A stretch of 64,000 nucleotides of DNA from Chiloscyllium plagiosum (lineage: Eukaryota), in assembly GCF_004010195.1 (NCBI RefSeq), contig NC_057751.1, positions 3,783,866 through 3,847,865 of the forward strand, read 5' to 3'. The notes beneath the pieces are model-generated. The model was not told where the DNA came from. It ran no database searches and saw nothing but the letters and a program-made list of their open reading frames with translations. Of this stretch, positions 9,986 to 62,562 are shown piece by piece (position 1 is the stretch's first letter; each line of letters begins with the position of its first letter). Made by a program: the position numbers and the translations under genes.

Positions 9986-10140
9986 GGAGAAAGTGAGGAC
10001 TGCTGATGCTGGAGGTCAGCGTTGAAAAGCATAGCAGGTCAGGCAGCATCTGAGGAGCAGGAGAATTGACGTTTCAGGCATAAACCCTTCATCAGATAGG
10101 GGAGGGTGGTGTATGGGGATGGGGCTGGGGAGAAAGTAGT
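9986..10140 (-). mobile_element. Penelope-like terminus (family A) with HHR motif at ~10064-10097
   Basis: Reverse complement has CTGATGA-AGGGTTTATGCCT-GAAACGTC; shares the AAAGTGAGGACTGC.GATGCTGGAG end with 29861 and 39455. Confidence 0.8.
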
Positions 10141-27470: not shown

Positions 27471-27808
27471 TTAAAAATCACACAACACCAGGTTATAATT
27501 CACAGGTTTATTTGGAAGCACTAGCTTTCAGAGCACTACTCCTTCATCAGGTGGTTGTGGAGTATGAGATCGTAAGACACAGAATTTATAACGAACATTT
27601 ACAGTGTGATGTAACTGAAATTATGTATTGAAACAGACTTGGGATTGTTTGTTAAATCTCTCATCTTTTAGAATGAACATGTTGGTTTCAGTTCTTTCAT
27701 ATGTAAATTGTCGAACTTTTTTAAAGTTACATTCTCAAGTGAACTTTAACAATTTGTGTCATGTACACATACACACACTCTCCCATAGACACTCATGAAC
27801 ACCTCCCG

Positions 27809-29860: not shown

Positions 29861-29989
29861 GGAGAAAGTGAGGACTGCAGATGCTGGAGATCAGAGCTGG
29901 AAATGTGTTGCTGGAAAAGCGCAGCAGGTCAGGCAGCAATCAAGGAGCAGGAGAATCGACGTTTTGGGCATGAGCCCTTCTTCAGGAAT
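29861..29989 (-). mobile_element. 129-bp Penelope-like terminus (family A) with HHR at 29954-29989
   Basis: Reverse complement ATTC-CTGAAGA-A-GGGC TCAT GCCC-AAAA-CGTC-GATT (G12 lost by CpG decay); 4-bp duplication GGTA; splits the CR1 RT. Confidence 0.85.
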
Positions 29990-30896
29990 GGTACACTAGA
30001 TTGATTCTGGAGTTGAGGGGGTTGGCTTATGAGGAGAGACTGAGCAGACTGAGGAGACTGGGAATATATTCATTGGAATTTCAAAGAATGAAGGGGGATC
30101 TCACAGAAACATATAAAATAATGAAGGGAATAGATAAGATAGATGTAGAGAAGATGTTTCCACAGGCACGTGAAATTAGGACAAGAGGGCATAGCCTCAA
30201 AATTAGGGGGAGCAAATTTAGGAACAAATTGAGGAGGAACTTCTTCACCCAAAGGGTTGTGAATCTATGGAATTCCCTGCCAAGTGAAGTGGTTGGGGCT
30301 TTCTCGGTACATGTTTTGAAAGTTAAGATAGATAATTCTTTTAACAGTGAAGAAATTAAGGGTTTTCGTGAGAGGGTAGGTAAGTGGAGCTGAGGCCACA
30401 AAAAGATCAGTCATAAACTTATTGAATGCTGGAGTAGGCTCAAAGGGCCAGATGACGTACTCCTGCTCTGAGTTCTTATGTTCTTGCTTTGGAGGGAGTG
30501 CAATGAAAGCTTACCAGGCTGTTTCCAGGGATGGCAGGACAGCCGTATGAGGAGAGATTGACAAGGTTGGGATTGTTATCACTGGAGTTTAGATGAATGA
30601 GAGGGATTTCATTAAGACCTGTAAGATTCTAACAGGACTAAGACATAATATACACGGGGGGATGTTCCCTCCAGAACCAGGGGTCACAATCTGAGGATTT
30701 GGGGTAGACCAATTCGAACAGAGATGAGGAGACACTTCTTCACTCAAAGAGTGGTAAGCTTGTGGAATACATTACCACAGGAAGCAGTTGATGCCAAAAC
30801 ACTGAATGCATTCAAGAGGTGGCTAGGTACAGCACTTGGGGTGAATGGGATCAAACGTTATGGGAAGAAAGCAAGATTAGGCTATTGAGTTGGGTA

Positions 30897-31280
30897 GGTA
30901 AAAACAATGACTGCAGATGCTGGAAACCAGATTCTGGATCAGTGGTGCTGGAAGAGCACAGCAATTCAGGCAGCATCCGAGGACAGGCAAAATCGACGTT
31001 TCGGGCAAAAGCCCTTCATCAGGAATAAAGGCAGAGAGCCTGAAGCGTGGAGACAAGTCCGGACAGGTCAGGGGATCGAGTTTCTGGAGGTTAGAGGCTA
31101 GGATGGGGTGGGGGAAGGGGAAATGAGGAAGCTGTTGAAGTCCACATTGATGCCCTGGGGTTGAAGTGTTCCGAGGCGGAAGATGAGGCGTTCTTCCTCC
31201 AGGCGTCTGGTGGTGAGGGAGCGGCGGTGGAGGAGGCCCAGCACCTCCATATCCTCGGCAGAGTGGGAGGGGGAGTTGAA
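30897..31280 (-). mobile_element. Penelope-like element 3' end: GIY-YIG C-terminus, HHR and tail, with 13-bp TSD
   Basis: Minus strand from 31280 translates FNSPSHSAEDMEVLGLLHRRSLTTRRLEEERLIFRLGTLQPQGINVDFNSF; TSD ATTGAGTTGGGTA at 30884-30896 / 31281-31293. Confidence 0.9.
30991..31026 (-). ncRNA. minimal type I hammerhead ribozyme, intact catalytic core
   Basis: ATTC-CTGATGA-A-GGGC TTTT GCCC-GAAA-CGTC-GATT; predicted GUC cleavage triplet. Confidence 0.8.
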
Positions 31281-31569
31281 ATTGAGTTGGGTAATCAGCC
31301 TTGATCGTGATGAATGGTGGAGCAGGCTCGAAGGACCAAATGGCGCCTCCTGCTCCTATCTTCTATGTTTCAATGTTTTTCCTGTTGTGTACTTTCATGC
31401 AAAAAGAATGGAAAATGTGAACGCTTATGTTCATTTCTTCAATGTTAACCATTGCCTATTCATTGTCATTCCTTTTACCAACGCTACCCAGAACATTGCA
31501 GCTAACTCAACCCACACGTTTCGTTGTTTCCTTTACTTCGATTTAAGATCCCGAGTTTTGGATTGGACT

Positions 31570-38454: not shown

Positions 38455-38660
38455 TCATTGAGTGTGGTGCTGGAAAAGCACAGCTGGTCAGGCAGCATCC
38501 AAGGAGTAGAAGAGTCAATGTTTTGGGCATACACTCTTCATCAGGAATGAGCGTGAAACATCAACTCTCCTGCTCCTCGGATGCTGTCTGACCAGCTGTG
38601 CTTTTCCAGCACCACACTCTTCAAATCTGATCTCCAGCATCTGCAGTCCTCACTCTCTCC
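38455..38660. mobile_element. fold-back PLE terminus (arms ~38460-38524 / 38556-38619)
   Basis: Inverted repeat of the family A tail, decayed HHR on the minus arm, ~15-bp imperfect TSD AAGGTCACTCCCTCAG / AAGGTCAGTCCTCAG. Confidence 0.85.
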
Positions 38661-47691: not shown

Positions 47692-48796
47692 AAACAAAAT
47701 GAGGGTGACAATTTGGAAAGATCTTAACATAAACATATAGCAGAAGCAATGCGTTGATTGGCTTCCTTCTGTAAATTCCAAAGGTTCTTTGATATCGGTG
47801 AGCTTTGGCAAATTTCCAAAATAGAATTTCTAAATGGCAGGAAGTATTCACTGTACAGTATCTGGGAAAACTGCCAATATATGTAAGGAGGAAGCCACAA
47901 AGATAATGACTGATATTGTTAAGTCACCAGTATAAAACCAATCTCAAAGGGATTCTCAAAAATTTACCATCAGCCTGTCAGGCCTAATTCCCACAGCATG
48001 TAATCAGTACAAATAGGACATGAAATGGAAATACTGGGATGTTACTAAAATGCAAAAGGTGATTTCCTCTTCAATTTCATATGGATTCAAGTCTTATGCT
48101 AACAGTAGGGGGAGTTGAGTTCCATTTCATCCAACACTGCTTCATGTACATGTGAAAGATGTCCACCAATACCATACTGATTTACAAATAAGCATGAACA
48201 ACATCTTTCAAAGCAAAACAATTCATTACATTAATTTAGTGTTTCATCAGAATTTTAAAATAAATATAGTATTTGGAACTACAAACCACTGGCTTATAGT
48301 CCCAAAGTATTGAAAATGTAATAAAAACGAAATTTAACTGATTCAGTAAGAAAAACTAGGGCCAGTAATTGCCGATGAATGGAATCACACAATATAATAA
48401 CTGAAATATCAATAATATCTTTGTAGGACAAGTAGTGTAATGGAATTTGACTTATTCGCTCAGCATAAAGCAATGCTCTTGTCAACATGCAACGATTTGG
48501 CAGATTTTGCATATAGTACACGTCAAATCAGCTCTGTTGCTATGAAACTGGGCAATAATGTATGAGTTAGGGCCTGTAGGTTAAAACTACAATCATCTGT
48601 GAATAAACAAATCCATAATTCCTATTTGTTTATTAGTTTTGCTTAATCATTTGTTAATCAGTAAAGGTACAGATAATAATTCATTTTCAATCTGAGTTTA
48701 TATTTACTTATTCAAAAAAAGCAAATGTATTGAAAGACATTTGTAGAAACAGAAGAGAAAATAGGGTTTGCTTTGATGAGACAATGATTTCCCAAA

Positions 48797-51410
48797 TCGA
48801 AGGAAGGATAGAAAGGGAGGCAAGAGAGGAGGGGAAGTGGCATTTTTGATAAGGGATAGCATTACAGTTGTGCTGAGGGAGGGTATTCCCGGAATTACAT
48901 CCAGGGAAGTTATTTGGGTGGAACTGAGGAATAAGAAAGGGATGATCACCTTATTGGGATTGTATTATAGACCCCCTAATAGTCAGAGGGAAGTTAAGAA
49001 ACAAACTTGTAAGGAGATCTCAGCTATCTGTAAGAATAATATGGTGATTATGGCAGGGGATTTTAACTTTCCAAACATCGACTGGGACTGCCATAGTGTT
49101 AAAGGTTTAGATGGAGAGGAATTTCCTAAGTGCATACAAGACAATTTTCTGATTCAGTATGTGGATGTACCTACTAGGGAAGGTGCAAAACTTGACCTAC
49201 TCTTGGGAAATAAGGCAGGGCAGGTGACTGAGGTGTCAGTGGGGGAGCACTTTGGGGCCAGTGACCATAATTCTATTCGTTTTAAAATAGTGATGGAAAA
49301 GGATAGACCAGATCTAAAAGTTGAAGTCCTAAATTGGAGAAAGGCCAATTTTGAGGGTATTAGGCAAGAACTTTCAAAAGCTGATTGGAGGCAGATGTTC
49401 ACAAGTAAAGGGACGGCTGGAAAATGGGAAGCCTTCAGAAATGAGATAACAAGAATCCAGAGAAAGTATATTACTGTCAGGGTGAAAGGGAAAGCTGGTA
49501 GGTGTAGGGAATGCTGGATGACTAAAGAAATTGACGGTTTGGTCAAGAAAAGGAAGGAAGCATATATCAGGTATAGACAGGATAGATCGAGTGAATCCTT
49601 AGAAGAAAATAAAGGAAGTAGGAGTATACTTAAGAGGGAAATCAGGAGGGCAAAAAGGAGACATGAAATAGCTTTGGCAAATAGAATTAAGGAGAATCCA
49701 AAGAGCTTTTACAAATACATTAAGGACAAAAGGGTAACTAGGGAGAGAATAGGGCCTCTCAAAGATAAGCAAGGCGGCCTTTGTGTGGAGCCACAGAAAA
49801 TTATTATAGAGGAGGAAGTGCTGGATGTCTTGAAATGCATAAAAGTGGATAAATCCCCAGGACCTGATTAGGTGTACCCTAGAACTCTGTGGGAAGCGAG
49901 AAAAGTGATTGCAAGGCCTCTTGCTGAGATATTTGCATCATCGATAGTCACAGGTGAGGTGCTAGAAGACTGGAGGTTGGCTAAATTGGTGCCACTGTTT
50001 AAGAAGGGTGGTAAGGACAAGCCAGGGAACTATAGACCAGTGAGCCTGACCTCGGTGGTGGGCAAGTTGTTGGAGGGAATCCTGAGGGACAGGATGTACA
50101 TGTATTTGGAAAGGCAAGGACTGATTCGGGATAGTCAACATGGCTTGTGCGTGGGAAATCATGTCTCACAAACTTGATTGAGTTTTTTGAAGAGGTAACA
50201 CAGAGGATTGATGAGGGCAGAGCGGTAGATGTGATCTATATGGATTTCAGTAAGGTGTTTGACAAGGTTCCCCATGGGAGACTGATTAGCAAGGTTAGAT
50301 CTCATGGAATACAGGGAGAACTAGCCATTTGGATACAGACTGGCAAGAAGACAGAGGGTGGTAATGGAGGGTTGTTTTTCAGACTGGAGGCCTGTGACCA
50401 GTGAAGTGCCACAAGGATCGGTGCCCGGTCCTCTACTTCTTGTCATTTACATAAACGATTTGGATGCGAGCGTAAGAGGTACAGTTACTAAGTCTGCAGA
50501 TGACACCAAAATTGCAGGTGTAGTGGACAGCAAAGAGGGATACCTCAGATTACAACAGGATCTGGACCAGATGGGCCAATGGGCTGAGAAGTGGTAGATG
50601 GAGTTCAATTCAGATAAATGTGAGGCGCTGCATTTTGGGAAAGCAAATCTTAGCAGGACTTATACACATGATGGTAAGGTCCTAGGGTGTGTTGCTGAAC
50701 AAAGAGACCTTGTAGTGCAGGTTCATAACTCCTTGAAAGTGGAGTCGCAGGTAGATAGGATAGTAAAGAAGGCGTTTGGTATGCTTTCCTTTCTTGGTCA
50801 GAGTATTGAGTACAGGAGTTGGGAGGTCATGTTGCGGCTGTACAGGACACTGGTGAGGCCACTGTTAGAATATTGCGTACAATTCAGGTCTTCTTCCTAT
50901 TGGAAAGATGTTGTGAAACTTGAAAGGGTTCAGAAAAGATTTACAAGGATGTTGCCAGGGTTGGAGGATTTGAGGTATAGGGAGAGACTGAACAAGCTGG
51001 GGCTGTTTTCCCTGGAGCGTCGGAGCATGAGGGGTGACCTTATAGAGGTTTACAAAATTATGAAGGGCATGGATAGGGTAAATAGGCAAAGTCTTTTCCC
51101 TGGGGTCAGGGAGTCCGGAACTAGAGGGCATAGGGTGAGAGGGGAAAGATATAAAAGAGACCTAAGGGGAAACTTTCTCACGCAGAGAGTGGTACAGGTA
51201 TGGAATGAGCTGCCAGAAGAAGTGGTGGAGGCTGGTACAATTGCAACATTTAAGAGGCACCTGGATGGGTATATGAATAGGAAGGGTTTGGAGGGATATG
51301 GGCCGGGTGCTGGCAGGTGGGACTAGATTGGGTTGGGACATCTGGTTGGCATGGATGGGTTGACCGAAGAGTCTGTTTCCATGCTGTACATCTCTATGAC
51401 TACGACTCTA
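48797..51410 (+). mobile_element. HER1-like CR1 ORF2 (APE endonuclease plus RT), with stops, frameshifts and an internal deletion near 49800
   Basis: GLYYRPPN, GDFNFPNIDW, SDHN, DFSKVFDKVPH, SADDTK; tail TCTCTATGACTACGACTCTA. Confidence 0.95.
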
Positions 51411-54871: not shown

Positions 54872-57061
54872 TGTTGTGAAGTTGAAGGTGTGTACTGTAC
54901 CTTTAAGAGAGAGAGAGAATGCTGTTCTGAATGAGAGTTTACAAGCCTCAGTGTATATGATTAGATGGCAGTTCCAGTGAATCCTGGAAAATTGAAAAAT
55001 GTAACATTTGGCTGTGAAATGGATACCTGAATTTTGGTTGCTGTTTTGACAACAACTCGAATTTAACCAATCAGTTTAAATTAGGCCTCAGGGACAGTAA
55101 AACCCAATCTGCTTCGAATTTATTGTTTTGCCAACATTAAAACAATACGACGATCCAACGTTGAGAGAATATAAGAATGCAGACATTTTGAAGATTGGAG
55201 AGAGAACAACTGACATCAAGACAGAAACACAGGGAGAGCTAACATCTTGTTGTCTCAGAAATTTAGAAACACACTCTGTCAAAGGTACCTTTTCACATGA
55301 AACATACCCGCAATAAAAAGCAAGACGACAACCCAGGGAGATCCTCAGCCGGAAGAGGGAAGACAGAAGACGACAGCAGTTGTGTGGCTTTGAAATTGAG
55401 TTGATGTAATTTTAGTAAGTGTCTTATTGGAACAGCATATTGTTATACAATTGGAGGAAGATTGCAAACAGTGAAGAGAAAGGGGCTTGGAGTTGTGAAT
55501 AGCAAATGTGGTTCCCTTGTTCAAAAAAGGAAGTAGAGACAACCCTAGTAATTACAGACCAGTGAGTCTCACTTCAGTTGTTGGTAAAGTGTTGGAAAAG
55601 GTTATAAGAGATAGGATTTATAACCATCTAGAAAAGAATAATCTGATCAGGGTCAATCAGCACGGTTTTGTGAAGGGTAGGTCATGCCTAACGAATCTTC
55701 TTGACTTTTTTGACAAAGTGACCAAACAGGTGGATGAGAGTAAACCGGTTGATGTGGTGTATATGGATTTCAGCAAGGTGTTCAATAAGGTTCCCCAAAG
55801 TAGGTTATTATACAAAATGCGGAGGAATGTGATTGTGGGAGACATAGCAGTTTGGATCAGTAATTGGCTTGCTGAAAGAAAACAGAGGGTTGTAGTTGAT
55901 GGAACATGTTCATCTTGGTGTCCAGTTACTAGCGGCGTACCGCAAGGGTCGGTGTTGGGTCCACTGCTATTCGTCATTTTTATAAATGACCTGAATGAGG
56001 GCTTAGAAGGGTGGGTTAGCAAATTTGCGGACAACACTAAGGTCGGTGGAGTTGTGGATACTGACGAAGGATGTAGTAGGTTGCAGAGAGACATAGATAG
56101 GATGCAGAGCTGGGCTAAGAGGTGGCAAATGGAGTTTAATGTGGACAAGTGTGACGTGATACACTTTGGATGGAGTAATCGGAATGCAAAGTACTGGGCT
56201 AATGGTAAGATTCTTGGTAGTGTCGATGAGCAGAGAGATCTCGGTGTCCATGTGCACAGATCCCTGAAAGTTGCCACCCAGATTGACAGGGTTGTTAAGA
56301 AGGCATACAGTGTTTTGGCCTTTATTAATAGAGGGATTGAGTTCCAGAACCAGGAAGTAATGCTGCAGCTGTACAAAGCTCTGGTACGGCCACACTTGGA
56401 GTGTTGTGTACAGTTCTGGTCACCATATTGTAAGAAGGATGTGGAAGCTTTGGAAAGGGTGCAGAGAAGATTTACTAGGATGTTGCCTGGTATGCAAGGA
56501 ATGTCTTATGAGGAAAGGCTGAGGGCCTTGAGGCTGTTCTCGTTAGAGAGAATAAGGTTGAGAGGTGACTTAATAGAGACATACAAGATAACCAAAGGGT
56601 TAGATAGGGTGGACAGGGAGAGGCCTTTTCCAAGTATGGGAATGGCAAACACGAGGGGACACAACTTTAAAGTGAGGGGAGACAGGTATAAGACAGATGT
56701 CAGAGGTAGTTTCTTTATTCAGAGAGTAGTAAGGGTATGGAATGCTTTGCCTGCAATGGGAGCAGATTCGCCAAGTAAGTGCAATTAAGTAGTCATTGGA
56801 CAGGCATAGGGACATACATGGAATAGGATAGGTGGGATGGGCTTCAGATTAGTATGACAGGGGGCGCAACATCGAGGGCCGAAGGGCCTGTACTGCGCTG
56901 TTATGTTCTATGAATGTTCACTTTGAGAGTTTAAAAAGATAAATCGATGTTAGTGGAATCTGGGAGTTCTGTCACTCATATTTTAACAGATTATGAGACG
57001 AGGTGAGCTTTTCTGGGTGTTTGGCTTAATTAACAGTGCGGTTCACCCCTGCGTCGTAACA
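54872..57061 (+). mobile_element. solo LTR interrupted by a CR1 insertion
   Basis: TGTT...AACA termini, perfect TSD ATTT (54868-54871 / 57062-57065), CCAAT and TATAA motifs; reverse homolog of 16382-17142. Confidence 0.9.
55501..56911 (+). mobile_element. young 5'-truncated CR1 with an uninterrupted 426-aa RT frame (55508-56788)
   Basis: Full RT motif set in one frame (the catalytic motif reads FADN); tail TTATGTTCTATG; flanking TGAAT repeat. Confidence 0.95.
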
Positions 57062-62418: not shown

Positions 62419-62562
62419 TTCTGGATTAGTGGTGCTGGAAGAGCACAGCAGTTTCAGGCAGCATCCGAGGAGCTGCCTGAACTGCTGATGCTCTTCCAGC
62501 ACCACTAATCCAGAATCTGGTTTCCAGCATCTGCAGTCATTGTTTTTACCTTGTTTTTACCT
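62419..62562. mobile_element. fold-back PLE tail insertion with 14-bp TSD
   Basis: 44-nt arms 62419-62462 / 62472-62515; TSD AATTAATACTTTGT at 62405-62418 / 62563-62576; same subfamily as 30897-30990. Confidence 0.9.

Follow-up and report, generated by a model that had tools for sequence, protein, structure and literature searches.

The insertion and its host LINE

The window, by which we mean the whole 64,000-nt stretch of Chiloscyllium plagiosum DNA analysed here, carries on its minus strand a 384-bp copy of a Penelope-like element (PLE) consisting of the end of an endonuclease ORF, a shortened 3' UTR, a hammerhead motif and a short tail (Table 1). Its flanks are the two halves of one LINE 3' end, which we take to be CR1-type. 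The long frames of the window look mostly LINE-derived, with LINE endonuclease and reverse transcriptase (RT) frames recognised by Pfam at 48780-49868 and 55499-56785, and a cursory look gave no host exon.

Table 1. Features of the PLE copy and its immediate surroundings, in window positions
Feature	Position	Strand	Remarks
Host LINE 3' part, left of the PLE insertion	30493..30896	+	
Target-site duplication (TSD), copy at the element 3' end	30884..30896	.	Exact 13-bp repeat; single in empty sites
PLE insertion, 5'-truncated and internally deleted, 384 bp	30897..31280	-	98-100% identity to young copies in aligned parts
Optional PLE tail, ~35 nt	30897..30932	-	Holds GACTGCAGATGCTGGA (30909-30924 on +)
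Segment after the cut site, up to the first preferred 3' end	30933..30994	-	Leads into the next ORF in tandem copies
Minimal type I hammerhead motif	30991..31026	-	Descriptor match
Hammerhead stem I	31026-31023 / 30994-30991	-	
Hammerhead CUGAUGA; bulged A	31022-31016; 31015	-	
Hammerhead stem II	31014-31003	-	
Hammerhead GAAA; ACGU palindrome; C17	31002-30999; 30999-30996; 30995	-	
Initiator-like YYANWYY match, TTATTCC	31022..31028	-	5' ends of copies concentrate here; overlap with the stem I 5' strand
Junction of the 135-nt deletion	31052..31053	-	In pyrimidine-rich 3' UTR; 2-nt microhomology
PLE ORF end, GIY-YIG endonuclease C-terminus	31098..31280	-	60 codons + stop; 57/60 identical to copy L003
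TSD, copy at the element 5' end	31281..31293	.	Final 2 nt shared with the element sequence further upstream (microhomology)
Host LINE 3' end, right of the PLE insertion	31281..31379	+	

The perfect 13-bp TSD claimed by the first-pass annotation is borne out by related host-LINE copies, 10 of 14 of which hold the 13-mer-like site once, followed by an ATCAGC-like continuation as in the right flank of the window; the remaining four diverge at this site, two of them with PLE insertions. Empty 13-mer sites number 750 in the genome by pattern match. Our unbiased sample of the PLE family comprised 96 copies among the first 100 matches listed of 24,271 in the 3.56 Gb searched, all from the start of contig C1, and flanking repeats of at least 10 bp, mostly 13-16 bp long, were found at 42 of the 95 scorable copies vs five of 93 controls. 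Strict target specificity was considered and rejected, as 33 TSD sites share only a weak purine bias at position -2 (26/33). The exact PLE/host junction of the window copy occurs twice in the genome. Two other loci, L138 (G000:C20 near 57323900) and L126, have PLE insertions at the same host-LINE nucleotide, the former a 94-nt piece of the window family without a clear TSD and the latter a member of another PLE family. A second same-family insertion at one nucleotide is unlikely by chance (roughly 1 in 100 or less), and the nucleotide shared by all three insertions may be a favoured nick site.

Relative to young copies, the window copy is missing 135 nt of 3' UTR located 25 nt upstream of the ribozyme, a deletion that was overlooked in the first-pass annotation and could postdate the insertion. 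Internal deletions with differing breakpoints are found in the pyrimidine-rich 3' UTR of many copies (L002-L009, L147), which suggests that RT jumps are frequent in this stretch. The 384-bp unit is short, cleanly flanked by a TSD and equipped with a hammerhead, and might thus be read as a non-autonomous retrozyme- or SINE-like subfamily replicating in its deleted form; animal retrozymes have been proposed to derive from pseudo-LTRs (pLTRs), and the same report places retrozymes in one chondrichthyan genome (bioRxiv 10.64898/2026.07.22.740005). Animal non-LTR retrozymes are described there as short, non-coding and pLTR-related with a type I hammerhead, all of which resembles the window copy, but as tandem units with a hammerhead each, whereas ours is a solo monomer with ends that do not lie at cut sites. 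Moreover, no near-identical full-length unit was present among the other 39 best-scoring candidates, leaving the deletion unique among the 40 scored, and those of 16 aligned candidates that are deleted in this stretch have other breakpoints. We therefore regard a replicating subfamily as very improbable.

Coding remnant and family assignment

The minus-strand peptide reported by the first-pass annotation, FNSPSHS...LEEERLIFRLGTLQPQGIN..., was found at 31280-31101, and the reading that begins at 31280 (FNSPSHS...EEERLIFRLGTLQPQGIN...) runs to a stop codon at 31100-31098. Its attribution to the C-terminus of a PLE GIY-YIG endonuclease held up through the closely matching longer copy L003, the endonuclease part of which passes the Pfam GIY-YIG cut-off (24.3 bits against 22.6), while the whole 399-aa frame of L003 stays 0.1 bit below it and the 60-aa window peptide alone gave no Pfam match. 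The L003 frame joins RT and C-terminal GIY-YIG endonuclease in one ORF, and Pfam RVT_1 was recognised in another copy, L093 (33.3 bits, cut-off 29.6). Longer family copies encode an RT with YIDD, a CX4CxxC linker and a GIY-YIG domain with the CCHH residues, i.e. two cysteines between GIY and YIG and two histidines (IIYCIRCSRCGLLYIG...REH...HFN); the window copy starts one codon past the last of these histidines.

The linker between RT and endonuclease reads CHRRNCKTC in L003, L004, L010, L025 and L028. By the account in PMC8557442, a CX2-5CxxC linker is a mark of Neptune/Nematis that Penelope/Poseidon elements lack, so the motif assigns the window family to a Neptune/Nematis type. The label 'Penelope' of the first-pass annotation is thus apt in the sense of a Penelope-like element, but not for membership in Penelope/Poseidon proper. 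Further features that PMC8557442 describes for Neptune/Nematis recur here, namely the single RT-linker-GIY-YIG ORF, CCHH, partial tandems, inverted 5' copies and a tail of 30-40 bp, although the window copy, unlike full elements, keeps only 60 codons. When 25 loci were chosen through the N-terminal part of the ORF, two of them (L113 and L118) showed the ribozyme, a further 60 nt and the tail leading without a gap into the N-terminal region of the next ORF, which is the pLTR or partial tandem layout. A PDB sequence search with the family RT returned 0 matches; its Atlas neighbours are eukaryotic and some carry GIY-YIG on 12-13% of their members, which serves as a lead only. One copy of the window family is adjoined by an open frame of 631 aa (L094:1036-2928), with RT and a GIY-YIG-like end, that belongs to a distinct second PLE family.

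The hammerhead motif

Read on the minus strand, positions 31026-30991 spell ATTC-CUGAUGA-A-GGGC(UUUU)GCCC-GAAA-CGUC-GAUU, 30995 and 30994 being the letters on either side of the predicted cut, and all core letters (C3-A9, G12-A14, A15.1, U16.1, H17) are present. The first-pass annotation had given the same letters but placed them about 90 nt after the peptide, the distance being 71 nt from the stop and 119 nt from 'GIN'. A hammerhead descriptor search, as it had proposed, returned two motifs in the window against zero from 50 Markov resamples, while an Rfam search yielded nothing at gathering score and no hammerhead family at E<=10. The third pair of stem I is U-U, which is the family norm, as the first 35 nt of the hammerhead have 12,657 exact copies in the genome.

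Among 57 sampled copies spanning the hammerhead, core and stem II are kept in 44 and C3-C17 is identical in 23 and altered in 34. The stem II covariation that the first-pass annotation expected across genomic copies was not seen in these 57, where the helices only decay, mostly at CpG. Stems do change in step at a larger scale: among 17 representatives of about five PLE families, the core is constant except at position 7, whereas stem I pairs 1-2 (16/17 each) and the palindrome (ACGU or AGCU, 13/17) vary in concert between families. In this comparison, which involves few independent lineages, pairing of stem II was required by the picking pattern but that of stem I and the palindrome was not, shuffle counts are for these reasons not to be read as probabilities, and pairs were counted from the core because MAFFT shifted stem II of a 13-nt family by one column.

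These data bear on whether the motif is a chance look-alike, or only a promoter or protein-binding element. Such a reading could draw on the missing Rfam match, the lack of within-family covariation, the lack of a cleavage footprint (see below) and the overlap with the initiator-like motif, but the concerted changes between families and the empty Markov controls leave it hardly credible. The hammerhead of this Neptune/Nematis-type family belongs to the established class of PLE hammerheads described in 2014, of which the window copy is an ordinary example, and in this the claim of a PLE terminus bearing a minimal type I hammerhead was right, core, stem II and palindrome being letter-perfect downstream of the GIY-YIG ORF end. 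As portrayed by Cervera and de la Pena (2014, PMC4209133), the minimal hammerheads in metazoan PLE pLTRs share with ours the type I topology, the CUGANGA and GAAA core without a real helix III, a single nucleotide separating position 9 from 10.1, the G10.1-C11.1 pair and a palindromic ACGU (15.2-16.2), and they are likewise mostly solo, left by truncated PLEs and present in thousands per genome. Our motif differs in its stem II of 4 bp, a canonical length, compared with 7-8 bp in the Schistosoma motifs of that source, and in the fixed U-U of stem I. The 12,657 exact copies of a single variant exceed the totals it gives for coelacanth (about 4,000) and Xenopus (9,000), numbers obtained with different search methods. 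Our literature search found no paper devoted to shark PLE hammerheads, though the supplements of PMC4209133 may list such motifs.

Other PLE families have left similar motifs on the minus strand of the window, one with a GGAG/CUC stem II and an AGCU palindrome at 27516-27558 and a decayed GGGU/GCCU variant at 10062-10103. The end of a second PLE family lies at 29873-30062 (-), 1 kb from the 384-bp copy, and contains a motif at 29958-29985 (-) that is broken at G12 but retains ACGUC-GAUU.

Predicted fold, cleavage and expression

In energy models, which lack tertiary contacts and proteins, the favoured prediction for the monomer has the core paired with the cleavage triplet at -11.4 kcal/mol, compared with -5.7 kcal/mol for stems I and II, and predicted stem I pair probabilities are 0.07 or less. 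The ACGU self-duplex reaches only about -3 kcal/mol and is not the best dimer fold predicted. The window hammerhead is thus predicted to be inactive on its own. In the account of PLE minimal hammerheads in PMC4209133, monomers did not cleave and dimers cleaved little. For a PLE hammerhead with protein assistance, cleavage has been reported, and was dispensable for insertion (PMC11167929). The suggestion of the first-pass annotation that this copy may still be catalytically competent finds no support here for the motif in place, a solo copy with a monomer predicted to misfold and a family that shows no cleavage footprint in genomic copies.

The copy might nevertheless be active or used by the host, either by self-cleavage in a read-through transcript or by pairing with the motif 1 kb downstream and cleaving there. 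Its core, stem II and palindrome are letter-perfect, in contrast to the 34 altered copies of the sample, the same-strand neighbour at 29958-29985 could in principle act as a partner, and a polyA single-cell RNA run contains the family, with 1,315 family reads on both strands from about 2% of the run; a second run contributed no reads. However, a young copy, 98-100% identical to its relatives, would be expected to be intact, and 23 of the 57 are equally intact; dimers cleave poorly in vitro according to PMC4209133; and read depth on the unique flanks of the window copy is ~1, only 94 of the 1,315 reads being at least 99% alike. Read starts or ends did not pile up anywhere in the 1,315 reads, a weak test of cleavage in a fragmented library. 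The reads show family sequence in RNA rather than expression of the window locus, and we consider activity of this copy improbable.

3' and 5' ends of family copies

The 3' ends of the 96 sampled copies have a bimodal distribution, with 34 lying 0-6 nt past a fixed point, 62 at 29-37 nt and none between. The two preferred ends are 35 nt apart, ~62 and 97 nt after the cut site. An optional tail of 30-40 bp is listed as a PLE feature in PMC8557442, and in the Poseidon element PAc of Anolis carolinensis (Frangieh et al. 2024, PMC11167929) the optional tail is due to a pair of internal sites downstream of the hammerhead where the RT starts, with uncut RNA as the main substrate, a likeness to the window family. 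PAc, whose ORF begins within stem II, is a member of the Penelope/Poseidon clade. The window copy has the optional tail, at 30897..30932. The 16-mer within it, GACTGCAGATGCTGGA, has 115,791 exact genomic copies and is common to several PLE families; one of its five copies in the window accompanies an intact hammerhead, two accompany decayed ones and two are fold-backs truncated past it. The abundant repeat was correctly placed in PLE ends by the first-pass annotation, and more precisely belongs to the optional tail of several families. Fold-back (head-to-head) fragments of PLE ends, the usual inverted 5' structure, are located at window 38464-38648 and 62419-62550.

Because the window copy runs on unbroken through the cut site, the RNA from which it was made was likely uncut, or re-ligated; a cleaved and then re-ligated (circular) template would leave the site equally continuous. 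By pattern, 461 copies start exactly at the cut site vs 13 and 10 at neighbouring positions, an apparent 40-fold excess that we considered as a cleavage footprint and rejected, since 19 of 20 fetched loci turned out to be a 17-nt tandem duplication and one a fold-back at stem I. The flanks of the 100 matches listed of the 461 were of the duplication type in 90 cases, of the fold-back type in nine and other in one, and once duplications and fold-backs are removed, host-junction 5' ends are not over-represented at the cut site. The 17-nt unit is bounded by a pair of imperfect direct repeats whose start coincides by accident with the cut site; a template jump from a cut RNA end could conceivably have produced it. 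About 400 genomic copies contain this apparent duplication (L231-L250; window equivalent 30994-30978), in mixed sequence variants, and it may have arisen more than once. L214 (G000:C1 near 5672397) is a single case of a copy beginning right at the cut site, with next-ORF start sequence in the same orientation in front of it, which could reflect a template jump or a circular intermediate.

Instead, the density of 5' ends peaks at 22-37 nt upstream of the cut, with 29 ends among 65 copies at risk or 3.5 per 100 nt vs 0.3-0.8 in the flanking bins, in a map in which 24 of 95 copies were censored, an N or the alignment limit being reached first. A second rise of 17 ends in bin +11 to +20 is in part artefactual, produced by variants whose letters at +5 to +10 depart from the reference. 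Loose ends also fall at the spot of the upstream cluster, at 31025-31027, in public DNA contigs and RNA reads. The initiator consensus is YYANWYY, and the match at this place might be the transcription start site. An internal TATA-less promoter has been described for Penelope of D. virilis (PMC2377424). Stalling of the RT or fold-back are alternative causes of the cluster, and inverted family sequence adjoins 12 of its 30 5' ends.

Origin of the copy and implications

Taken together, the locus is very probably a non-coding, 5'-truncated end of a Neptune/Nematis-type PLE that was inserted into an older LINE with a 13-bp TSD, likely by target-primed reverse transcription (TPRT) of uncut RNA, and whose hammerhead is predicted to be inactive alone. 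The endonuclease of the element would have nicked the host LINE, and the RT would have started inside the element RNA at the tail-end site, as seen in vitro for the anole element. It may then have read through the ribozyme, skipped 135 nt at the 2-nt microhomology and stopped within the endonuclease coding region. By analogy, the motif of a tandem element in working order would cleave only as a dimer via its ACGU palindrome or with help of the element protein, modes of cleavage that are established for other PLEs, the former in the account of PMC4209133 and the latter in PMC11167929.

More tentatively, and with considerable doubt, the family transcript could start at the initiator ~32 nt before the cut, the RT could copy the leader whole from the tail sites, and the ribozyme could act as an off-switch rather than a maturation step, because integrated copies derive from uncut RNA. 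If this were true, tens of thousands of solo hammerhead insertions of 95-130 bp would be complete leader cDNAs and not random truncations, the off-switch would take the cap from the front of the RNA and the RT start sites from its back, and the C. plagiosum genome would document such a model in vivo on a very large scale.

The window copy alone matters little, being one among more than 12,000 with identical ribozyme letters. For annotation, the 115,791-copy motif can be used as a PLE tail. The genomic record of integration from uncut RNA, with 5' ends at the upstream edge of the ribozyme, agrees with the anole element in vitro, and the family is large enough to test whether, and why, PLE hammerheads cut in vivo.
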